DNA of 64,000 nt from assembly GCA_029288895.1 (NCBI GenBank), contig JARIGK010000001.1:65446-129445 (forward strand), given 5' to 3'. The DNA comes from Candidatus Adlerbacteria bacterium. GTDB taxonomy: Bacteria; Patescibacteriota; Minisyncoccia; Phycocordibacterales; SBAW01. Both the position numbers and the translations under genes were made by a program. Each line of letters opens with the position of its first letter. The first letter of the stretch is position 1. Shown here piece after piece: positions 2,762-54,496 of this stretch. The notes below the pieces were generated by a model that ran no database searches, had not been told where the DNA came from, and was given only the letters and a program-made list of their open reading frames with translations.

Positions 2762-2781
2762 GGAGGAGTATACTAACCACT

Positions 2782-2973
2782 ATGAGACGCGTGCTCGCAT
2801 TACTCACCCCATTGTCGCTTGTAGGCATACTGAGTTTCTACGGAATCTCGTGGCTCCATGCGGCGCCAGAGCCAACGATGTGCGCAGTTACAGACCATAC
2901 TGCTTCTGCAACGGTCCCACAGGCACACACAGACGAGAGAGTTTATTTTGTTGGGTGCGGCGGGCTTTTCTAA
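2782..2973 (+). CDS. 63-aa exported or membrane-anchored small peptide (cassette 1 peptide). Hydrophobic N-terminus, conserved C-terminus ...ERVYFVGCGGLF.
   Basis: The palindromic -10 box AGTATACT lies 7 nt upstream of the ATG. The stop overlaps the next ATG (TAATG). A paralogous peptide at 14802 has the same C-terminal motif. Confidence 0.6.
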   Translation: MRRVLALLTPLSLVGILSFYGISWLHAAPEPTMCAVTDHTASATVPQAHTDERVYFVGCGGLF

Positions 2974-3422
2974 TGAGCACCAAAGACCCACGGGATTGGC
3001 GGATTGTGCCCACTGTATATAAGGAGGGGGAGTACGCAGCGCCTATTGCACGTTTTGAACGGAGCGATTTTGTATGGGAAAAACTCGGCGCAACACTCGA
3101 TGCGCACCGCCCACACGGGCTCGGTATTATGCTTTCGTTTGCATGGCAGCTCCATACGTATGCATATAACGAAGCAAACAAACGAGGTGTGGTGACTGCG
3201 GTTGCCATGCCCACCAACGTAAGCGCCTTGTCGGGGCTTATGAAATCAGTGCCTATTGATGCAGTGCTGACAACAGACGAAGGTGCGCGCGCGTTTATGG
3301 ACGATCTGCGCGAGGTAGGTATGCTCGAGCGCATCAAGGTATGGATTATCGTTTCACCCAAAGATGCGCCTAGCTCATTCACCGCACCCGTCGGTGTCAC
3401 CGTGCATGACATACTCCCATGA
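2973..3422 (+). CDS. About 150-aa protein of unknown function (cassette 1 middle gene). It is translationally coupled to the peptide upstream and the ligase downstream.
   Basis: ATG overlaps the peptide stop (TAATG). Its stop overlaps the ligase start (ATGA). About 40% identical to the 15012..15335 product (GLGI[ML]L, VxAVA[ML]P[TS]x[VI]SAL[ST]GL and IKxW[IF]IV motifs). Confidence 0.6.
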   Translation: MSTKDPRDWRIVPTVYKEGEYAAPIARFERSDFVWEKLGATLDAHRPHGLGIMLSFAWQLHTYAYNEANKRGVVTAVAMPTNVSALSGLMKSVPIDAVLTTDEGARAFMDDLREVGMLERIKVWIIVSPKDAPSSFTAPVGVTVHDILP

Positions 3423-4702
3423 ATAATCAACACGCACTTCTTCAAACAGCGCTCGACTTCGCGCTCCGAAATCCGCACTCTGATTTTTATCGTCGGAAGT
3501 TTGGCGCATCGTGGGAACAGTATTTTGGCAAGCCAATAGAAGACATTCCATTTCTGGTGCGAAAAGAAATTGATGATGCGCCGATATTTGAACGGACGTT
3601 TGTACCGCGCGAGATGGTGCGTTTTATCCGCTCGACGTCAGGCTCGAGCGGGAAACATGTGATCGGGTTCCCGATGCTTGAAGAAGGGTTGTATCAAGAA
3701 TTTTTGCGTTCTATCGGGTATACGCATACACCGGGGCAGCTCTCGCGTTACTTCGAACCATACTTTACGCAGATGAATATACGCTCGATGCTGCTCTTTT
3801 CCGCTGGCGCGTTTGTGCATGAGGCTCGCGTGCGAGACATGGAAGGAAGGCAGTGTATCGCTGGAGAATTTTCGCAACCCAAACTTACGGCACAGCTCGG
3901 TACCGAAGCCGCTGTGGATGCAATTGTCGGCAACCCAAGCGGGCTGGTCGATTTTGCTCCGCATATGCGTGCTGCCGGGGGCCATACAGGCGTCCGCCTT
4001 ATTATCTCGGTTGGTGAGCGCCCCACGGCACTCCAGTTTGAAACACTCGAGACTTCGTTCCCGAATGCAAAAATTGCATTGCAGTATGGCCTTACAGAAT
4101 CGCAAGGATATGTTGGCTATACCTGTCCAGAAAAACTAAGCGTCGACCCCAAAGCGCTGCACTTGGCAGAGGGGACCCTCTTTATGGAACTTATCGACCC
4201 GGATACCGAAGCGGTATTGCCGCTCCAGCCTGGCACCGAAGGCGAGGTGGTTATAACTACGCACGAACCGCAAGGATTCCCACTTATACGCTATCGGACC
4301 GGAGATTTTGCACGCATTCGCGAAGAGTCCTGTAGCTGTACGGGGAGCCCCTTGTTGTTTGAATGTATGGGGAGGCTCGAGCTTGATCGCGTGCGCGTCC
4401 CCAAAGGCATGCTCACGATTGCAGCAATTGAGCATGCAATTTTTGGGTTTGGCGGCGTTCGCGAATTTGAAGCGAAGTGGAATACAGACGGTGGCCTGCC
4501 TCGATTGGAGATTTCTTTATATATGGAACACCGATACGCTGCAGAACATGTTATGGCCGATGAGCTTGCGTCGCGCATCCGTATTGCGCCCACAGTAACC
4601 TACAAAACAATAGTGGACGAAGGTCGCGCACTGCCACTGTCCGTAACGATACTGCCTCCCGAACAGTGGGTCGGCTGGAAAAAGAAAAAGCGATTGCGTT
4701 AG
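3419..4702 (+). CDS. PaaK / coenzyme F390 synthetase / CapK-like adenylate-forming enzyme (ANL superfamily). Cassette 1 ligase.
   Basis: P-loop-like RSTSGSSGKHV near residue 70, a YRTGD hinge motif and a C-terminal subdomain of about 100 aa. Total length 427 aa, typical of phenylacetate-CoA ligase-like enzymes. Confidence 0.75.
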   Translation: MNNQHALLQTALDFALRNPHSDFYRRKFGASWEQYFGKPIEDIPFLVRKEIDDAPIFERTFVPREMVRFIRSTSGSSGKHVIGFPMLEEGLYQEFLRSIGYTHTPGQLSRYFEPYFTQMNIRSMLLFSAGAFVHEARVRDMEGRQCIAGEFSQPKLTAQLGTEAAVDAIVGNPSGLVDFAPHMRAAGGHTGVRLIISVGERPTALQFETLETSFPNAKIALQYGLTESQGYVGYTCPEKLSVDPKALHLAEGTLFMELIDPDTEAVLPLQPGTEGEVVITTHEPQGFPLIRYRTGDFARIREESCSCTGSPLLFECMGRLELDRVRVPKGMLTIAAIEHAIFGFGGVREFEAKWNTDGGLPRLEISLYMEHRYAAEHVMADELASRIRIAPTVTYKTIVDEGRALPLSVTILPPEQWVGWKKKKRLR

Positions 4703-35915: not shown

Positions 35916-35991
35916 GCCGCCTTAGCTCAGTTGGTAGAGCAACTCTTTTGTAAAGAGAAGGTCCCCAGTTCAAGCCTGGGAGGCGGCTCCA
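35916..35991 (+). tRNA. tRNA-Thr (anticodon TGT), 76 nt with encoded CCA.
   Basis: Hand-folded cloverleaf: 7-bp acceptor stem GCCGCCT/AGGCGGC, D-arm GCTC-AGTTGGTA-GAGC, anticodon loop TT-TGT-AA, T-arm CCCAG-TTCAAGC-CTGGG, discriminator T, then CCA. Confidence 0.85.
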
Positions 35992-39350: not shown

Positions 39351-41162
39351 ATGAAAATTTCTAAACCCTGGCTTGATAAATTCTTCGACGCGCCGCTGCC
39401 AGATGCAGATGCGCTTTCGGATGCGCTGACATTTCATGCGTTTGAAATTGACGGCGTCGACCGCGTTGGTGACGATGATGTGCTTGATGTAAAAGTTACG
39501 CCTAACCGCGGCCACGATTGTTTGTCGCACCGCGGCATTGCAAAAGAGTTATCGACAATCTTGAAACTCCCGCTTGCGCACGACCCGTTTGGTACCAAGC
39601 CTGCGCAAAACTTTTCCATCGGTTCTGCCGAACCGGGACAAAGTTCTGCTTCGGCATCCGCACTGTCTGTGGGTATCCAAACACCTCTATGCAAGCGCTA
39701 CATGGCAGCGTATATCAAGGGTGTAAAGGTGGGGCCGTCGCCTAAGTGGCTGCAAGAGCGGCTCGAAGCAATAGGCCAGCGCTCGATAAACAACGTTGTT
39801 GATGCAACAAACTTTGTGATGTTTAACACAGGCCAGCCGCTGCATGCATTTGATGCAAACCGCCTTGGCAGCCTTAACATTGGTGTGCGCATGGCGCAGG
39901 AAGGCGAGAAGCTCGAAGCGCTCGATAAAAAAGTCTACGACCTTACTCCCGCGATGCTTGTGATTACGGCAAACGACAGACCAGTCGGTATCGCCGGCAT
40001 TAAAGGTGGCGAGGCAGACAGAATCGACGAGACAACAGTAGATGTTGTTATTGAGTCGGCAAACTTCGACGGCGTTACGATCCGCAAAGGTTCACAGGCA
40101 TTGAAGTTGCGCACCGATGCCTCATCGCGTTTTGAGCAGGTACTTTCGCCAGAACTCTGCGTGTACGGTATGAACGGCATGCTCGAATTTATCGCCCATG
40201 TTTGTGGTGGCGACGTTGTCTCGCTTGTTGATGTATACCCAGAACCACAAAAACAAACTTATGTATCTGTCACGCTCGAGCATATAAACAAACTCTTGGG
40301 TACGAAGATCACCGCAGCGGATGTTGCCGATGTATTTACGCGCCTCGGGTTTGCATACAAAGAAGAGCAAGGCGTATTCGAAGTGCAGCCGCCAGCCGAG
40401 CGTTTGGATTTGGTGATTGCAGAAGATTTGATTGAAGAAGTTGGCCGCATCATCGGCTACGACAATGTGCCCGCGGTCGAGATGCCGGCGCTTTCAAAAG
40501 CCCCGGACGTAAACGCTGGGTTCTACGCAGCAGAAAAAACGCGCGAGGAATTGATTGCGCAGGGCTACTCAGAAGTATTTACGTCAGTCTTTGCTGAAAA
40601 AGGCGAGCGCACAGTGCTCAACAAAGTTGATGGTGTAAAACCTAACCTCCGCACGAACTTGAAAGACGGCTTGCTTGATGCGTGGAATAAAAATACCCCA
40701 AACAGAGAGTTGTTGGGGCTCAAAGAATTGAAGTTGTTCGAAATCGGCACTGTCTGGGCAAATGGCGGAGAAGAGATGCATATCGCAACAGTAAATGCGA
40801 AGGGTGCAGTAGAAGAAAAGAAGCTCGAGCCCATCGCGGCAGATGCATACGATGTATTGCCGCTTTCAGACGCTGAGCGTTACGAAACATTCTCGCGCTA
40901 CCCGTACATTGTGCGCGACGTCGCATTTTGGACACCTGCTGGTACTGACGAGGCAGAAGTAGAAAAGCTGATTACAGAAAAAGCAGGGGAGTTGTGCGTG
41001 CGCATCTCGCAATTCGACCGCTTCCAAAAAGGCGACAAAACCTCGCTCGCATACCGCCTTATCTTCCAGTCGTTTGAACGTACGCTTGAAGATGCAGAAG
41101 CAAACACTGCGATGGAGCAGGTCTACGCGAGCCTAAAAGAAAAAGGGTTCGAGATCAGATAA
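39351..41162 (+). CDS. pheT: Phenylalanine-tRNA ligase beta subunit (short form, 603 aa).
   Basis: Follows pheS with a 2-nt gap. B3/4 and B5 regions and C-terminal anticodon-binding domain. Confidence 0.88.
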   Translation: MKISKPWLDKFFDAPLPDADALSDALTFHAFEIDGVDRVGDDDVLDVKVTPNRGHDCLSHRGIAKELSTILKLPLAHDPFGTKPAQNFSIGSAEPGQSSASASALSVGIQTPLCKRYMAAYIKGVKVGPSPKWLQERLEAIGQRSINNVVDATNFVMFNTGQPLHAFDANRLGSLNIGVRMAQEGEKLEALDKKVYDLTPAMLVITANDRPVGIAGIKGGEADRIDETTVDVVIESANFDGVTIRKGSQALKLRTDASSRFEQVLSPELCVYGMNGMLEFIAHVCGGDVVSLVDVYPEPQKQTYVSVTLEHINKLLGTKITAADVADVFTRLGFAYKEEQGVFEVQPPAERLDLVIAEDLIEEVGRIIGYDNVPAVEMPALSKAPDVNAGFYAAEKTREELIAQGYSEVFTSVFAEKGERTVLNKVDGVKPNLRTNLKDGLLDAWNKNTPNRELLGLKELKLFEIGTVWANGGEEMHIATVNAKGAVEEKKLEPIAADAYDVLPLSDAERYETFSRYPYIVRDVAFWTPAGTDEAEVEKLITEKAGELCVRISQFDRFQKGDKTSLAYRLIFQSFERTLEDAEANTAMEQVYASLKEKGFEIR

Positions 41163-48498: not shown

Positions 48499-49380
48499 AT
48501 GACAAAAGCACACACAACCGCATCCATTTTTAAGACACTGATCGTGCCGCTTTTTGTCGCGCTGTATTTTATTGGTGGTGTTTCGTTTGCGATGCATCGC
48601 GCAGCATTCAACTCATTTTTTGATATTCATATTGCACACGCAGAAGGTGACGGCGGCGGCGACGGCGGAGGCGGTGATGGTGGTGGCGACGGTGGAGGTG
48701 GTGGTGACGGAGGTGGTAGCTCAGGTGACGCAGGAGGCAGCTCTGGCGGCGGCTCTGCTGGTGATGGCACTGGTGATGGTGAAGGTGATGCCGGAGTTGG
48801 CGATAGCGATGGGTGCTGCGGCCCGTCAGGCCCAGATGCGCCATCTGCTCCAGATTCACCAGCATCACCTTCTTCACCAGGGCCCGGTCCTGGTTCGGGC
48901 GATGGCGGCGGCGATTATATATTCCCGCCGACTCCTCCAGCGCCTGGTTGCACCACAAATTGCAATCCGGTCCCTCCTGTTTGCCCAGCAGGCACTACAG
49001 GCACATATCCAAACTGCACAACGCCGCCTGGTGGCTGCACTACAAACTGCAACCCACCTCCGCCGCCGGGTTGTACAACAAACTGCAATCCAACGCCTCC
49101 GCCCCCGCCTCCCGGCGGTGGAGGGTGCAGCTTTGGCTGCGGTGGTGGCGGTGGTTCATTTGCCTACAATTACTATCCGCCAACACTGAGTTACTACGCG
49201 ATCCCGCAAGTTACTCTTACGCAAGTGCCATACACCGGCCTTGATATGGGGCCACTTGCAACAGCGCTCTACTGGCTCTTCCTTGGCGTGTGGACGCTGC
49301 TTGGCGCTTACATGATCATCATCAAGCGCATGCATACAACTATTGCACAGAGAATGAACACCTTACTGTTCGGCGAATAA
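48499..49380 (+). CDS. Secreted low-complexity protein, probable sortase substrate 2. Gly/Asp-rich, Pro-rich, with GCTTNCNP repeats and a C-terminal VPYTGLDMG-TM-KRMH...LLFGE module.
   Basis: GDGGGDGGGG... region. Three GCTTNCNP(P) repeats. C-terminus QVPYTGLDMGPLATALYWLFLGVWTLLGAYMIIIKRMHTTIAQRMNTLLFGE. Confidence 0.6.
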   Translation: MTKAHTTASIFKTLIVPLFVALYFIGGVSFAMHRAAFNSFFDIHIAHAEGDGGGDGGGGDGGGDGGGGGDGGGSSGDAGGSSGGGSAGDGTGDGEGDAGVGDSDGCCGPSGPDAPSAPDSPASPSSPGPGPGSGDGGGDYIFPPTPPAPGCTTNCNPVPPVCPAGTTGTYPNCTTPPGGCTTNCNPPPPPGCTTNCNPTPPPPPPGGGGCSFGCGGGGGSFAYNYYPPTLSYYAIPQVTLTQVPYTGLDMGPLATALYWLFLGVWTLLGAYMIIIKRMHTTIAQRMNTLLFGE

Positions 49381-49390
49381 AAACACATAC

Positions 49391-49428
49391 GAAAAACCCC
49401 TCGAGAATCTCGAGGGGTTTTTTGTTTT
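49391..49428. terminator. Bidirectional rho-independent terminator between substrate 2 and thrS.
   Basis: GAAAAA-CCCCTCGAG-AAT-CTCGAGGGG-TTTTTTGTTTT. Confidence 0.8.
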
Positions 49429-50641
49429 ATATATTCGCGCGTTCACGGATGCGTTCGAGCATTGGCTCTACAAATTCATTCAGTGAGACAGTTTGTTTAT
49501 CGCCATTGCGATTATTTTCAACAGTCACTGTTTGGTCGGCAACTTCTTTGTCGCCCACAACAATGGTGCAGGGGATCTTGCCTGTCTTTGCTTCGCGGAT
49601 GCGTTTGCCAAGCGAGTCGTCGGCCAACATCTGCACGCGGACGCCGCGGCCCTTCAATGTACTAACGATGCTTTGTGCGTATGCGTTATGTGCTTCACCC
49701 ACGGGGAGCACGGCAACCTGCACAGGCGAGAGCCAGAGGGGGAGTGCGCCGTCGAAGTGCTCGAGCAAGATAGCAGCGCAGCGCTCAAGCGAGCCTGCGA
49801 TAGCCGCATGGATCATCACGATACGTTCCTTCTGGCCTTGTTCGTTGATGCAGGTCAAATCAAAACGTTCAGGGATGTTCATGTCGAGCTGAATCGTTGC
49901 AACTTGCCACTCGCGGCCTGCCGAGTTCTTTGCCATAAAGTCGAGCTTCGGGCCGTACAGCGCCGCTTCACCCGGACCTTCAAAGGTGTCTGCACCGCGC
50001 TCTTCTGCCAAGCTGCGCAACTCGCCTTCTGCAGTATCCCAAATGGCCGGTGTGCCGATGTATTTCTCTGGCGTTGCCGGGTCGCGGAACGAAAGGCGCA
50101 CGCGCAAGGTAAAGCCAAACTTTTTGTAGAAGGTGTCGATGATATCCCAGATCTTCAAGAACTCTTCGCGTACTTGGGTGGTGCGGCAAAAGACGTGCGC
50201 GTCATCTTGGGTAATTGAAAGCACGCGTGTGAGGCCGCCCAATTCACCCGACTGCTCGTCGCGATACACCATCGTTGTTTCTGCGTAGCGTTGCGGCATC
50301 TCGCGATAGCTGTGCGGTTTGCGGTCGAAGATCTGCGTGTGGTGCGGGCAGTTCATCGGCTTCATCGCATACTCGCGGCCTTCGCGCGAGGTAATTTTGA
50401 AGAGATCTTCAGCAAATTTTTCCCAGTGGCCAGAGGTGACATAGAGTTCTTTTTTTGTGATATGGGGGATGGTTACCTTTTCGTAGCCGCGCGCTTCGCG
50501 CATCTCCCAAATAAATTTATCGAGCTCGTTGCGGAAAATAGTCCCTTTAGGGGTCCACAGTGGGAGCCCAGGGCCTACCAATTCTGAAAATGTAAACAGG
50601 TCCTGCTCTTTGCCAATGACGCGATGATCTCGTTCTTCCAT
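49427..50641 (-). CDS. thrS: Threonine-tRNA ligase, catalytic core plus anticodon-binding domain only (404 aa; no N-terminal TGS or editing domains).
   Basis: Class II motifs (FRNELDKF motif 1, YAMKPMNCPHH, GTIQLD-like motif 3) and a C-terminal anticodon-binding domain. Preceded by a T-box leader. Confidence 0.85.
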   Translation of the reverse strand: MEERDHRVIGKEQDLFTFSELVGPGLPLWTPKGTIFRNELDKFIWEMREARGYEKVTIPHITKKELYVTSGHWEKFAEDLFKITSREGREYAMKPMNCPHHTQIFDRKPHSYREMPQRYAETTMVYRDEQSGELGGLTRVLSITQDDAHVFCRTTQVREEFLKIWDIIDTFYKKFGFTLRVRLSFRDPATPEKYIGTPAIWDTAEGELRSLAEERGADTFEGPGEAALYGPKLDFMAKNSAGREWQVATIQLDMNIPERFDLTCINEQGQKERIVMIHAAIAGSLERCAAILLEHFDGALPLWLSPVQVAVLPVGEAHNAYAQSIVSTLKGRGVRVQMLADDSLGKRIREAKTGKIPCTIVVGDKEVADQTVTVENNRNGDKQTVSLNEFVEPMLERIRERANI

Positions 50642-50830
50642 ATAATTTTTATGTAGTAGTAAATAAAATCACCCTAGTGAAAACACGAGTGCTCGTGTAC
50701 TCACTAGGGCGATCTCACTGCTGACCGCGGTTCCACCTAGTTTCCCCGTATGGGGCACTTTAGTATCGGATTAGGCTCTCGCTCCCATCTGGGACTTCGG
50801 GTGGTAGCCGAAGCAATTTCCGTTTGTCTA
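50642..50830 (-). ncRNA. T-box riboswitch leader upstream of thrS (candidate).
   Basis: Minus strand contains AAACTAGGTGGAACCGCGG, matching the T-box consensus AAnUAGGGUGGnACCGCG. The UGGA bulge is complementary to the UCCA 3' end of the tRNA-Thr found in this window. A 10-bp terminator stem GCCCTAGTGA...TCACTAGGGT is followed by GATTTTATTT. An AGAGA-like GAGAG element and ACC/ACU codons lie in the 5' stem region. An upstream TTGACA-16-TACGAT promoter is present. Confidence 0.6.
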
Positions 50831-50860
50831 TCGTATCGTGCATAGAAAGGATGTCAATAA

Positions 50861-50890: not shown

Positions 50891-51409
50891 TTAAGATTTC
50901 TTTTTGCGAGAGGTTTTCCTCTTGGGCAAAGCATTTTCTTGCATGCGCTTGAGGCCTTTGGTAAACGCCTCGTACATGTTCTTCTCTGAAGCTTCAAGCC
51001 CTGCTCGACGCATCAAATAGGCGATGGCCGGCTGCTGCATGTTGCCGATAGGCTTTTTGCCACCAGCAAAAGCATCCAATGCTCCTGGGATGTTATACAG
51101 ATGCTTGTTGATCATGTTCGCAACAGGGTCGCGATGCACGACAGTCGACACGCCGAGAGAGGTCACAAAGTGCTGTTCACGCGCACCTGAGCCGCTGTTT
51201 GCAGACTCGCGCAACTGCCCTATCACGTCTTTGACCGCTTTGCGATCCTTGGCGGTCACGGACTTCGGGGCTTTTTCCAGAGCCTCGATTGCCCGTGCAT
51301 ACAAAGGGAACTCCGTACGGTTTTCCCACGTAGCGAGCGAGAGATGAGGAGGTTTGGGAATTGGTTTCCTGAGATCTTTTACGTGTTGTTCAAGTCCTGC
51401 AACGTCCAT
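50891..51409 (-). CDS. Hypothetical protein (172 aa) with a basic C-terminal tail.
   Basis: ORF bounded by a terminator. No recognisable motif. Confidence 0.4.
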   Translation of the reverse strand: MDVAGLEQHVKDLRKPIPKPPHLSLATWENRTEFPLYARAIEALEKAPKSVTAKDRKAVKDVIGQLRESANSGSGAREQHFVTSLGVSTVVHRDPVANMINKHLYNIPGALDAFAGGKKPIGNMQQPAIAYLMRRAGLEASEKNMYEAFTKGLKRMQENALPKRKTSRKKKS

Positions 51410-51457: not shown

Positions 51458-54400
51458 CTACAAAGCTTTCAGTGCTTCGGCAACCAGCGAAAGTTCGCCG
51501 TTGCGGTTGGAGAGTCGGCCTTTGAGCGCGATGCAGGTTTCGGGTTTGATGATGTCTTTGTGCTCGACAAAGTTTTTGGGGAAGACGACGGCCTCAATAG
51601 AGCCGTCGAAGTCGGAGAGTTTGATAAACGCCATCTGGTCGCCGCCGCGAGTGAGGATAGTACGTACGTCTTCTATCATGCCGGCGGCAACCGCGGTTTG
51701 GCCTGGCATAATGCGCTGCTTCATCTGGCCGATGGTCATCGGGCGCTTCGACAATTTTTCGCGGAAGCGGTCGAGCGGGTGGCCCGACACGTAGAGGCCA
51801 AGCAACTCTTTTTCCCACGCCAATTTTTCTTGCTGTGATGCTTCGGGCGCTGGAGATAATGTGATGCCGCCCGTGCTTTCTGCCATGCCGGCAAAGAGCG
51901 AGTCTTGTGCTTGCTCGGCGCCTGCGTCGCGTTGGAATTGCAGCATCAACTCCAAGTTCGCCATCATCTGCCCGCGCTCACCAAACGAGTCGAGCGCACC
52001 GCACTGGATCAGCGACTCGAGACCCTTTTTGTTCATTGTGCTGCCGGCAGTGCGTTTCAAAAAGTCAGAAAGGGAAGTAAACGGCCCGTTTGCTTTGCGC
52101 TCGGCAATCAATGCGTCCGCAACGCCTTGGCCAAAGTTTTTGATTGAGTAGAGACCGAAGCGAATTGCATCGCCTTTCAAATCGCCCGCAAGCGACGCTG
52201 CTTTTGCGCTACGCTCCTCATTGTTTGAGCCAAGCAAGGCGGTAAATGTACCGAAGCTTTCGTTCACGTCGGGCGGCAACACCTCGATACCCATGCGCTT
52301 ACATTCAGCAACAAGTATCGATACTTTGTCGACGTCGCCGGCGTCTGCTGTGAGCGCAGCCGAGAGATATTCCACTCCGTAGTTGGCTTTCAGATACGCG
52401 GTTTGGTACGAGACGCGGCCGTAGCTCGCCGAGTGCGCTTTATTAAAGCCGTATGCGGCGAATGGTTCGATCCAGGCCCAGACACGTTCTGCCTTCGCGC
52501 GCGGCCACCCCGACGTGGTGACGCAGCCTTCAATAAATTTCTCTTTCTGCTTCTGCATTTCTTCCGGGATTTTTTTACCGACGGCTTTGCGGAATTTGTC
52601 CACCTCGCCCCAGCTGTAACCCGCGAGTTGGTTTGCCATCATGAGCAAGTCGTCTTGGTACACCAAAATGCCGTAGGTCTGTTTTAAGATCGGCTCCATC
52701 GCTGGGTCTAAGTACGAAATCAAGTTCGGGTTGTGTTTGCGTTCGATATAGTTCGGGATAAATTGCATCGGCCCCGGGCGGTAGAGCGCCACCATTGCGT
52801 TGATGTCGTGGATAGTCGAGGGGCGGAGTTCTTTCAGCGCACGCGTCATGCCGCCACCGTTTAACTGGAAGGTTGCTTCAGTCTCACCGCGTGCGAGCAT
52901 TTCGAATGTTTTGGTGTCGTCGAGCGGTATCGTTTCAATATCGAGCTCTTTGCCGCGTGTCGTTTTAATAAGTTCGACGGCGTCGGCCAGCATCGTGAGG
53001 TTTTTGATACCAAGGAAGTCGAACTTGGTGAGGCCCACGCCGTCTTCGCCCACGCTGTACATGTCGTACTGCGTAATCAGCTTGCCGCCCTTGGGGTCTT
53101 TTTGGAGCGGCGCATATTCGACGAGTGGTTTGGGTGCGATAACGACGCCCGCGGCATGCACACCGACGTGGCGCGCGCAGCCTTCAATTATCTTTCCCAA
53201 GTCGATGATTTCTTTGGTCTCTGGTTCTTTCTTGTACATCTCGCCGAGCGCGGGGTTTTCCACGAGTGCGCGCTCAAGTGTCATGGGGAAGCCTTGTGAG
53301 CCCATCGGGATTTCTTTTGCGATGCGGTCGCCCAAGCCGTAGGGCTGGCCAAGCGCGCGGGCGACGTCGCGCACTACGCCGCGGGCAAGCATCGTACCGA
53401 AGGTGCCGATTTGGGCCACATGGTCGTCGCCATATTTTTTGCGCGCGTACTCAATCACCTCGTCGCGTCTATTGTCGGCGAAGTCCATGTCGATATCTGG
53501 CGCTGAGGGGCGCTCGGGGTTCAAGAAGCGCTCGAATGGGATCTTGTATTCAAGAGGGTCAATCTTGGTGATCTGCAACAAGTAGGTCGTCATTGAACCG
53601 GCGACCGAACCGCGGATGTTGGTGTAGATATTGTTCTCGCGCGCAAAGCGGATCAAATCTTCCACCACCAAAAAGTACGCGGCATAGCCCTTAAATTTAA
53701 TGATGCCAAGTTCGTAGTCGAGACGCTCGAGCACATCCTCACGGCCCTCGAGCCCGCGGGCTTTTAAACCTCTCATGCACAACTCGCGCAACAGGTCGTC
53801 TCCGGTTTTGCCCGGGGGAAGCGGGAATTCGGGGAAGATAAATTTACCGATGGTGAGTTCGACATTGCAGCGCTCGGCAATCGCCACTGTTTGTGCGAGC
53901 GCCTCTTTGCCAAACGTCGATTCCATCTCGCCGCCCGAAGGGAAGTAGTGTTCGACATCGTCGTCAGCCAAGCCGCCGTCATCGCCACCGCGGTTTTCGA
54001 TAGCGCGCATTACGTCCCACGCGCGCGCATCAGATGGCTCGAGATAAAAAATCTCCCACAGTGCTGCGTCAGTGTAGACATTCCCTTTACCAAATATCTT
54101 TTCTACTTCTGCTGAACGCTCGCCGCGGATGGTGGGCACGACAGCAATCAGCCCGTCTCTATGTTTCTTAATCAGTTCAAGCGAATAGACACCTTCGTGC
54201 TCGACTTGTACTTCAGTAACCAGTTTGAGCAAGCTCTGGTAGCCGGTGTTGTTCTCGCAGAGTAGGAGCAAACGCGACGCTTCAAGCGGCACTTCGATGC
54301 CGATGATCGGTTTGATGTCGTTATCGACGCATTCTTTATAAAAATCGATGGCGCCATAGAGGTTGCCGATGTCTGTCAGTGCCAGCGCCTCCAAACCCTC

Positions 54401-54496
54401 CTTTTTTGCCCGGGCCACAAGTTGTGGGATTTTGGGGAGCGCCTTCAGCAGTGAGTAGTGCGAATGGACATGGAGATGTGCGTACTTCGCAGACAT
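51458..54496 (-). CDS. dnaE: DNA polymerase III alpha subunit (1012 aa, compact).
   Basis: N-terminal PHP domain (HLHVHSHYSLL), polymerase core, OB-fold C-terminus. Confidence 0.9.
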   Translation of the reverse strand: MSAKYAHLHVHSHYSLLKALPKIPQLVARAKKEGLEALALTDIGNLYGAIDFYKECVDNDIKPIIGIEVPLEASRLLLLCENNTGYQSLLKLVTEVQVEHEGVYSLELIKKHRDGLIAVVPTIRGERSAEVEKIFGKGNVYTDAALWEIFYLEPSDARAWDVMRAIENRGGDDGGLADDDVEHYFPSGGEMESTFGKEALAQTVAIAERCNVELTIGKFIFPEFPLPPGKTGDDLLRELCMRGLKARGLEGREDVLERLDYELGIIKFKGYAAYFLVVEDLIRFARENNIYTNIRGSVAGSMTTYLLQITKIDPLEYKIPFERFLNPERPSAPDIDMDFADNRRDEVIEYARKKYGDDHVAQIGTFGTMLARGVVRDVARALGQPYGLGDRIAKEIPMGSQGFPMTLERALVENPALGEMYKKEPETKEIIDLGKIIEGCARHVGVHAAGVVIAPKPLVEYAPLQKDPKGGKLITQYDMYSVGEDGVGLTKFDFLGIKNLTMLADAVELIKTTRGKELDIETIPLDDTKTFEMLARGETEATFQLNGGGMTRALKELRPSTIHDINAMVALYRPGPMQFIPNYIERKHNPNLISYLDPAMEPILKQTYGILVYQDDLLMMANQLAGYSWGEVDKFRKAVGKKIPEEMQKQKEKFIEGCVTTSGWPRAKAERVWAWIEPFAAYGFNKAHSASYGRVSYQTAYLKANYGVEYLSAALTADAGDVDKVSILVAECKRMGIEVLPPDVNESFGTFTALLGSNNEERSAKAASLAGDLKGDAIRFGLYSIKNFGQGVADALIAERKANGPFTSLSDFLKRTAGSTMNKKGLESLIQCGALDSFGERGQMMANLELMLQFQRDAGAEQAQDSLFAGMAESTGGITLSPAPEASQQEKLAWEKELLGLYVSGHPLDRFREKLSKRPMTIGQMKQRIMPGQTAVAAGMIEDVRTILTRGGDQMAFIKLSDFDGSIEAVVFPKNFVEHKDIIKPETCIALKGRLSNRNGELSLVAEALKAL

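Follow-up and report, generated by a model that had tools for sequence, protein, structure and literature searches.

In the four-class scheme of T-box riboswitches, Class II (glycine) lacks Stem II, Class IV is intermediate in the length of its Stem I, and Class III, typified by the ileS leader of Nocardia farcinica, has a short Stem I with the specifier in an apical loop of 5–6 nucleotides (nt) and requires Stem II; Classes I and II are generally transcriptional, and Classes III and IV mostly translational (PMC10482949). According to a preprint on the ileS T-box of Mycobacterium smegmatis, every ultrashort T-box regulates ileS and does so at the level of translation (10.1101/2023.02.28.530422). 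In transcriptional T-boxes a platform for binding the elbow of the tRNA is considered essential for fast capture of the tRNA before the terminator (PMC7583486, section 6.2), and reviews place the long-Stem-I platform in transcriptional switches and the short Stem I in translational ileS leaders of Actinobacteria (PMC7583486, PMC10482949). Here we describe the leader of thrS, the gene for threonyl-tRNA synthetase (ThrRS), in a 64,000-nt stretch of DNA from a Candidatus Adlerbacteria bacterium (contig JARIGK010000001.1, positions 65,446–129,445; hereafter the window). This leader is very likely a transcription-attenuating, tRNA-Thr-specific T-box riboswitch of minimal architecture. The initial annotation of the window had proposed T-box control of a minimal ThrRS through sensing of tRNA-Thr, and that core reading is supported by the comparative and structural evidence given below.

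Architecture of the thrS leader

All coordinates are those of the window, and the leader and thrS lie on its minus strand. The sequence and its folding were parsed into the following parts, listed in the direction of transcription:

50857–50830, minus strand: sigma-70-like promoter, with TTGACA at 50857–50852, a 16-nt spacer and TACGAT at 50835–50830
about 50823–50661, minus strand: leader of about 160 nt (promoter and leader together span 50857–50661)
50814–50794, minus strand: ultrashort Stem I, 21 nt in total, a 7-bp helix GCUUCGG/CCGAAGU with a 7-nt apical loop
50807–50801, minus strand: apical loop CUACCAC, with the specifier ACC at 50805–50803 followed by A50802
50793–50784, minus strand: hairpin CCC-AGAU-GGG in the position of Stem II
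50782–50775, minus strand: hairpin GC-GAGA-GC in the position of Stem IIA
50774–50769, minus strand: F-box-like CUAAUC, directly 3′ of hairpin IIA
50760–50744, minus strand: AAGUG (RRRNG) and Stem III CCCC-AUAC-GGGG (50755–50744), followed by AA at 50743–50742
50743–50725, minus strand: T-box sequence AAACUAGGUGGAACCGCGG / AAACTAGGTGGAACCGCGG, placed by sequence and Rfam alignment
50740–50704, minus strand: antiterminator, made of helix A1, a 7-nt bulge, helix A2 and an 8-nt loop
50740–50736 with 50708–50704, minus strand: helix A1, CUAGG paired with CCUAG
50735–50729, minus strand: bulge UGGAACC, in which UGGA (50735–50732) is complementary to the tRNA 3′ end UCCA
50728–50723 with 50714–50709, minus strand: helix A2, GCGGUC paired with GAUCGC
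50713–50661, minus strand: intrinsic terminator, with arms 50713–50699 and 50682–50668, an inner hairpin 50698–50683 and a U tract
50667–50661, minus strand: U tract UUUAUUU, directly 3′ of the terminator hairpin, ending 20 nt before the AUG
49427–50641, minus strand: thrS, encoding a ThrRS of 404 amino acids (aa), its own transcription unit

The promoter, the T-box sequence, its UGGA and the terminator with its U tract are thus all found on the minus strand where the initial annotation had placed them. By consensus comparison the promoter matches at 10 of 12 positions, and in the closest relative, L164 (L-numbers denote the compared thrS loci), TTGACA-17-TACTAT is kept at the corresponding place. 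Transcription would start near 50823, about 9 nt before Stem I; the distance from promoter to AUG is about 180 nt.

Stem I and the specifier

The comparison covers 17 leaders, namely that of the window and 16 from other Patescibacteria, with nine in the window's own group; ThrRS loci at 40–68% identity were obtained by scanning species-representative genomes. The inner four pairs of Stem I are paired in all 17 leaders, with four to five pair types at pairs 3 and 4, and none of 2000 partner shuffles matched the observed pairing (this count uses its own table and is independent of the alignment A3 introduced below). The loop bases ACCA are invariant across the 17 leaders and the loop bases flanking them vary. 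A Thr codon followed by a purine and displayed in the Stem I loop, which is what a T-box needs, is therefore present as ACC-A, and an ACN codon does stand in specifier context. The initial annotation had pointed to two Thr codons, ACC and ACU-A; the relatives uphold the first as specifier, and the second, which lies in the linker, finds no such support.

The 7-nt loop follows the C-U-NNN-A-A/C pattern of an anticodon loop. Loops of the relatives measure 7–9 nt and read CUACCAA in L001, L003, L009, L114, L081, L164 and L022, CCACCAA in L086 and L096, and CUAACCAC and similar sequences in Saccharibacteria. Stem I here lacks a platform that could contact the elbow of the tRNA. In L081 and L086 dnaE ends with its stop codon only about 20 nt upstream, so there is no room for a canonical long Stem I. 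The GAGAG that had been read as an AGAGA-like element (50780–50776) proved to be the loop of the small hairpin IIA, and not the AGAGA or AG bulge of a long Stem I.

From Stem II to Stem III

The hairpin in the Stem II position (helix 2 of alignment A3) is paired in 77% of cells, with changes on both sides, and its length varies among relatives, reaching 44 nt in L009. Hairpin IIA is helix 3. The CUAAUC that follows is placed by Rfam in the F-box region of RF00230, and all nine leaders of the window's group have CUAAUC, CUAAUU or CCAAUC there. Stem III (helix 4) shows double changes at all four of its pairs. Together with the preceding AAGUG and the AA that follows, it forms before helix A1 the RRRNG–Stem III–AA motif as defined in PMC7778990.

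A sequence-motif search, which would miss a non-canonical equivalent, found no S-turn signature (AGUA/GAA) in Stem II. AGUA is likewise missing between Stem I and the T-box in eight of the nine leaders of the window's group, and its single occurrence, in L096, sits in the linker. Inspection revealed no consistent 3-bp pairing with the linker, such as a IIA/B pseudoknot would give, for the loop of either IIA or Stem II. Rfam itself places CCCGAA...AGAUGGG as a Stem II S-turn; we rejected this placement, which conflicts with the Stem I that covaries in 17 leaders and is reproduced in no relative.

Antiterminator and terminator

The segment UAGGUGGAACCGCG at 50739–50726 agrees with the T-box consensus AGGGUGGNACCGCG, as quoted in PMC11297988, at 11 of the 13 specified positions, and both differences fall in A1, where pairing is kept. 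In a nine-sequence alignment GGUGGAACCGCG is invariant. Helices A1 and A2 (helices 5 and 6) are 98% and 92% paired across the alignment.

The antiterminator has an energy of −12.4 kcal/mol as drawn and −14.1 kcal/mol in the minimum-energy fold of its segment, and the terminator −31.0 kcal/mol (50713–50661) or −36.6 kcal/mol (50718–50658). Because positions 50713–50704 serve both the 5′ arm of the terminator and the 3′ strands of the antiterminator, the two structures are mutually exclusive. When the 3′ arm of the terminator is blocked, the minimum-energy fold agrees fully with the manual drawing in Stem I, II, IIA, Stem III and the antiterminator. The shared segment and this constrained folding together bear out the view that the two hairpins are exclusive alternatives. 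None of 200 shuffles was as stable as the 172-nt leader fold (z = −5.9).

No Shine-Dalgarno sequence was found before thrS at 50642–50660 or within the hairpin, and an A/U-rich stretch precedes the AUG. L164, L081, L086 and L096 likewise have no Shine-Dalgarno sequence before thrS; the Saccharibacteria relatives carry a clear AAGGAGG, placed downstream of the terminator, which does not sequester it.

Covariance models

The standard Rfam model for T-boxes, RF00230, has a gathering cut-off of 93 bits. Against the window leader it scored 22.9 bits (E = 0.0034, 401 nt searched; match 50820–50702), below threshold on the test that the initial annotation had suggested. In the alignment only the 3′ half of the leader, from the F-box to the antiterminator, fits well, and 91 model positions of Stem I are deleted. 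Canonical Firmicutes thrS leaders gave 95–119 bits with RF00230 in a parallel scan, where L164, L081 and L086 had no score. At the gathering cut-off no T-box was reported in 43 loci either (L001–L041, mostly Patescibacteria loci, without L029, plus L164, L081 and L086). We attribute the low score to the ultrashort Stem I, with its 91 deleted positions, and hence to a different architecture, not to the absence of a T-box. Regular-expression scanning for a hairpin plus TGGNACC was too noisy, and covariance models were used instead.

Model R1 was built from nine leaders. On the 64-kb window it returned a single site, the thrS leader, at 131 bits, and in neither the window nor 84 other loci (about 660 kb) did it find a second T-box beyond the thrS leaders and the canonical Firmicutes ones. 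Model R2 was built from L001, L003, L009, L096 and L114 only, leaving out the window, L164, L081 and L086; it matched the window at 50823–50691 with 89.3 bits (E = 1.3e-17). With an independent model giving an E-value of about 1e-17, chance resemblance is excluded. Alignment A3 holds 12 sequences and 27 modelled pairs and is fitted to the model, which favours pairing. In it the share of paired cells is 89.2%; shuffling the partners lowers it to 69.8% (none of 500 shuffles reached the observed value) and sliding them to 36–49%. Both-side changes occur in 22 of the 27 pairs, spread over all six helices.

Leaders in other Patescibacteria

Each of the 16 other Patescibacteria thrS leaders combines a hairpin with ACCA in its apical loop and a UGGAACC, and the downstream gene is always thrS. 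In a dozen loci GUGGAACC stands just upstream of a longer, N2-bearing ThrRS gene. By the common plan a short hairpin is followed by one or two hairpins that vary, in most cases by a Stem III, then by UGGAACC bulged out between a pair of helices, and finally by a terminator that overlaps; the overlapping terminator hairpin with its U run is clear in 15 of the 16 relatives and weak in L024. Relatives at 77–90% ThrRS identity show compensatory changes, for instance C-G to U-A in Stem I of L164 and a remodelled A2 in L081.

Within the close relatives that have a 404-aa ThrRS, the leader was found only in L081, L086, L096 (= L097), L114 and L164. In the remainder thrS has just a promoter, or it begins 11–12 nt behind dnaE (L161 and L165, at 85–88% ThrRS identity); the leader has been lost in about 75 of 80 close-relative metagenome loci as well as in L161 and L165. 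Since it is present in distant loci and missing in most close relatives, it is old in Patescibacteria, patchy, and often lost.

Some leaders are smaller still. The Doudnabacteria locus L022 (803–920) has about 33 nt between the CUACCAA loop and UGGAACC, with no room for Stem II, IIA or III, and the further reduced leader of L012 (179–307) consists of Stem I, a single hairpin and the T-box.

The probable cognate tRNA

One tRNA-Thr gene is encoded in the window:

35916–35991, plus strand: tRNA-Thr(UGU), ending ...GGCGGC-U-CCA, with discriminator U73 and encoded CCA

The A of UGGA in the leader is complementary to U73 of this tRNA, in keeping with the match of UGGN to the discriminator base. T-boxes are reported to show a strong tendency towards Watson-Crick pairing of specifier with anticodon (PMC7778990). 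The initial annotation had matched the UGGA bulge to the UCCA end of this tRNA, and that match holds, with its discriminator U; its anticodon, UGU, does not suit ACC. Because its anticodon is UGU and not GGU, this tRNA is unlikely to be the isoacceptor that is sensed; the sensed species is probably tRNA-Thr(GGU), encoded outside the window.

Proposed mechanism and alternatives

In the proposed mechanism, transcription would start about 9 nt before a 7-bp hairpin whose anticodon-loop-shaped C-U-ACC-A-C displays ACC and a purine, and uncharged tRNA-Thr would pair with ACC through its anticodon, for which GGU is expected. With its free 3′ end, UCCA, the tRNA would pair with UGGA in the 7-nt antiterminator bulge and stack on Stem III and A1. 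The bound tRNA would thereby hold the weak antiterminator (−12 to −14 kcal/mol) against the terminator (−31 kcal/mol), and RNA polymerase would read into thrS; charged tRNA would make no 3′-end contact, so that the terminator would form and transcription stop at UUUAUUU. As there is neither a distal Stem I platform nor an S-turn signature, decoding would have to rest on the apical loop and further contacts.

Several observations weigh against this interpretation. We infer both tRNA binding and termination in vivo from the sequence. The sole tRNA-Thr in the window has UGU, so that a GGU isoacceptor must be assumed elsewhere in the genome; U34 of the tRNA at 35916 would face the C of ACC, with no match at the wobble position. 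Rfam at its gathering cut-off found only tRNA in the window, and no T-box. Judged by its distribution the leader is dispensable, since most close relatives with a 404-aa ThrRS do without it. The platform is absent despite the terminator, contrary to the kinetic argument of PMC7583486, and motif search and inspection found neither the S-turn in Stem II by which Class III makes up for the platform nor a partner for a IIA/B pseudoknot.

If the T-box were mainly translational, like the ultrashort ileS leaders of Actinobacteria, the hairpin would hinder binding of the 30S subunit instead of terminating transcription; a Stem I of this architecture has so far been tied to translational control (10.1101/2023.02.28.530422; PMC10482949), and with no recognisable Shine-Dalgarno sequence before thrS in the window, initiation may need an unstructured A/U-rich leader near the hairpin. 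We nevertheless consider this improbable, as the hairpin, G+C-rich and directly followed by UUUAUUU, has the form of an intrinsic terminator, stops 20 nt short of the AUG, and leaves both the start codon and any ribosome-binding site unpaired. The AAGGAGG of Saccharibacteria lies outside and downstream of the hairpin, and hairpin and U run are kept in 15 of 16 other leaders. Transcriptional control is favoured on these grounds: a G+C-rich hairpin with a U tract, its position relative to the AUG, no sequestered ribosome-binding site, and an AAGGAGG that in Saccharibacteria stands beyond the hairpin.

The frequent loss of the leader in close relatives, as counted above, would also fit a decaying T-box remnant that no longer regulates, with thrS expressed by constitutive read-through or from another start. 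This is very improbable given that all helices and conserved motifs of the window leader are intact, that relatives compensate (Stem I in L164, A2 in L081), and that an unrelieved terminator of −31 kcal/mol before an essential gene would be harmful. The E. coli thrS gene is autoregulated by ThrRS, which binds mimics of the anticodon arm in its own leader. A protein-binding operator of this kind, or a chance likeness to a T-box, is scarcely credible here: the apical hairpin does match an anticodon arm in size and loop length, and Rfam support alone is weak, but the loop carries the codon ACC and not a Thr anticodon (GGU, UGU or CGU), which makes it complementary to tRNA-Thr and not a mimic of it, and the invariant GGUGGAACCGCG, the 7-nt bulge and the overlap with a terminator are hallmarks of T-boxes; the E-value of R2 excludes chance. 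A terminator-type T-box specific for tRNA-Thr thus remains the preferred interpretation.

A ThrRS without editing domain

ThrRS of the window was said to lack the TGS, N2 and editing domains, and both Pfam and alignment to the C-terminal part of the E. coli and Staphylococcus aureus enzymes confirm this. Pfam detects nothing beyond the class II catalytic core and an anticodon-binding domain, and the protein aligns to residues 239–641 of S. aureus ThrRS and 241–636 of E. coli ThrRS. It also aligns end to end with the engineered 401-aa, N-terminally truncated E. coli ThrRS (PDB 1evk/1evl). A tblastn search of the 64-kb window with the N2/editing domain of L001 found no editing domain; its lone match, caused by the shared KRDHRxxGKExDLF with which the catalytic core begins, was rejected.

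Source names of relatives (Paceibacterota, Adlerbacteria, Kaiserbacteria) place this ThrRS in a Patescibacteria lineage. The best 120 relatives listed are all at least 73% identical and 402–418 aa long. Most ThrRS of species-representative Patescibacteria genomes have an N-terminal extension of 180–200 aa with HxxxH, which in L001 matches tRNA_SAD. Most Patescibacteria ThrRS (L001–L050) have the N2/editing domain with no room for TGS, at about 580–600 aa, and in the window's clade and in L002, L007, L023 and L029, N2 is lost as well, leaving about 404 aa. One leader family precedes both forms, which argues that N2 was lost downstream of a pre-existing leader.

The combination of core and anticodon-binding domain is shared with the truncated E. 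coli ThrRS of PDB 1evk/1evl, the yeast mitochondrial ThrRS 3ugq and the crenarchaeal catalytic-only ThrRS 3a31. The truncation in E. coli is engineered; that in the window is natural and common to a Patescibacteria clade. The truncated E. coli enzyme mischarges Ser, and crenarchaea supply ThrRS editing in trans.

Genomic context

Two further terminators delimit thrS and its leader:

49389–49425, both strands: bidirectional terminator hairpin 3′ of thrS
50884–50868, minus strand: terminator of the upstream 172-aa open reading frame (ORF)

Since this upstream ORF has its own terminator, thrS and its leader form a separate transcription unit. The ORF itself (50891–51409, minus strand) has no Pfam family and lies between dnaE (51458–54496) and the thrS leader. 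In L164 the gap between dnaE and thrS holds a 166-aa gene (PF27765) on the opposite strand. The dnaE–thrS junction is a rearrangement hotspot, and whether a leader is present follows the state of the junction (window, L161, L164, L165).

A sortase gene (PF04203; 47110–47790, plus strand) lies two ORFs from the gene of a 293-aa protein (48499–49380, plus strand) that is rich in Gly/Asp and in Pro, has repeated CTTNCNP units, and ends in LTQVPYTG, a hydrophobic helix and a basic tail. This C-terminus resembles a sortase sorting signal. In L001 the gene convergent to thrS (2773–4125, minus strand) ends in the same LTQVPYTG...IKR tail. The LTQVPYTG protein looks like a conserved neighbour of thrS, and its family may possibly be one of non-LPXTG sortase substrates.

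The window also contains pheT (39351–41162, plus strand), whose product has only 603 aa, with domains B3_4, B5 and FDX-ACB. Neither Rfam nor R1 found a T-box upstream of pheT, and thrS is the only gene in the window under T-box control by these models.

Implications

As a tentative proposal, which we hold as possible and not as the expected outcome, the Patescibacteria thrS leaders could constitute a fifth architectural class of T-box: of the terminator type, without platform or S-turn, and with the apical loop (C-U-ACC-A-A/C on a stem of 4–7 bp) as the sole recognisable decoder. If this is true, loop–loop 'anticodon–anticodon' pairing, perhaps with further contacts, would be quick and stable enough for the tRNA to be bound before the polymerase reaches the terminator. 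That would contradict the kinetic argument for the platform, and the leaders would be the smallest natural transcriptional T-boxes, in a lineage where standard annotation finds none. By joining a short apical-loop Stem I to an intrinsic terminator and Thr sensing, these leaders offer a natural test of that argument, and a minimal transcriptional T-box of about 160 nt could serve in engineering.

Because the standard Rfam model misses T-boxes across the superphylum, regulatory annotation of the candidate phyla radiation (CPR) is incomplete. In the T-box database TBDB the model for a short Stem I was restricted to Actinobacteria and Rfam hits (PMC7778990), for which reason TBDB would have missed the Patescibacteria leaders. 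An incomplete literature search, which leaves room for an earlier description, returned no paper that joins T-box riboswitches with Patescibacteria or CPR; nor did it return a described thrS T-box with the specifier in an apical loop, or the combination of a short apical-loop Stem I with a terminator. The leaders also matter for the question, put in PMC4810234, of whether T-boxes with a short Stem I are ancestral. T-box control tied to a ThrRS without editing raises questions of Thr/Ser fidelity and of Thr supply in symbionts with tiny genomes.

Comparison with known T-box classes

Class I thrS leaders of Firmicutes (Bacillus, Clostridium, Lysinibacillus; L051–L073) share with the window leader the gene, the logic of terminator and antiterminator, and the UGGAACC bulge. 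The thrS and thrZ leaders of Bacillus subtilis also use ACC as specifier. The Firmicutes leaders differ in being 220–230 nt long with a long Stem I, whereas the window leader deletes 91 Stem I positions of RF00230. Firmicutes thrS is also often preceded by two or three tandem T-boxes, and the window has one. Among the Firmicutes loci, L060, L063, L064, L053 and L073 have two to three tandem copies of GUGGAACC, spaced 250–280 nt, upstream of thrS, and Rfam confirms tandem T-boxes in L053, L063, L064 and L073.

The ultrashort class (ileS of N. farcinica, Mycobacterium tuberculosis and M. smegmatis), compared here through secondary descriptions, is closer in layout. Like Class III, the window leader lacks the interdigitated double T-loop platform on its short Stem I, and it has an apical-loop specifier near the 5′ end and the domain order Stem II, IIA with F-box, linker, Stem III and UGGN discriminator. 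Class III uses a Shine-Dalgarno sequestrator and is known from ileS and tRNA-Ile in Actinobacteria; the window leader has an intrinsic terminator and the Thr codon ACC, and precedes thrS in Patescibacteria. The loop of Class III has 5–6 nt and its Stem II is long with an S-turn, a string of five purines that clamps the helix between codon and anticodon, whereas the window leader has a 7-nt loop and a Stem II of 3–4 bp without an S-turn signature. By these features the window leader is a T-box with the defining discriminator elements, stands outside Class I and RF00230, and is to Class III a relative only.

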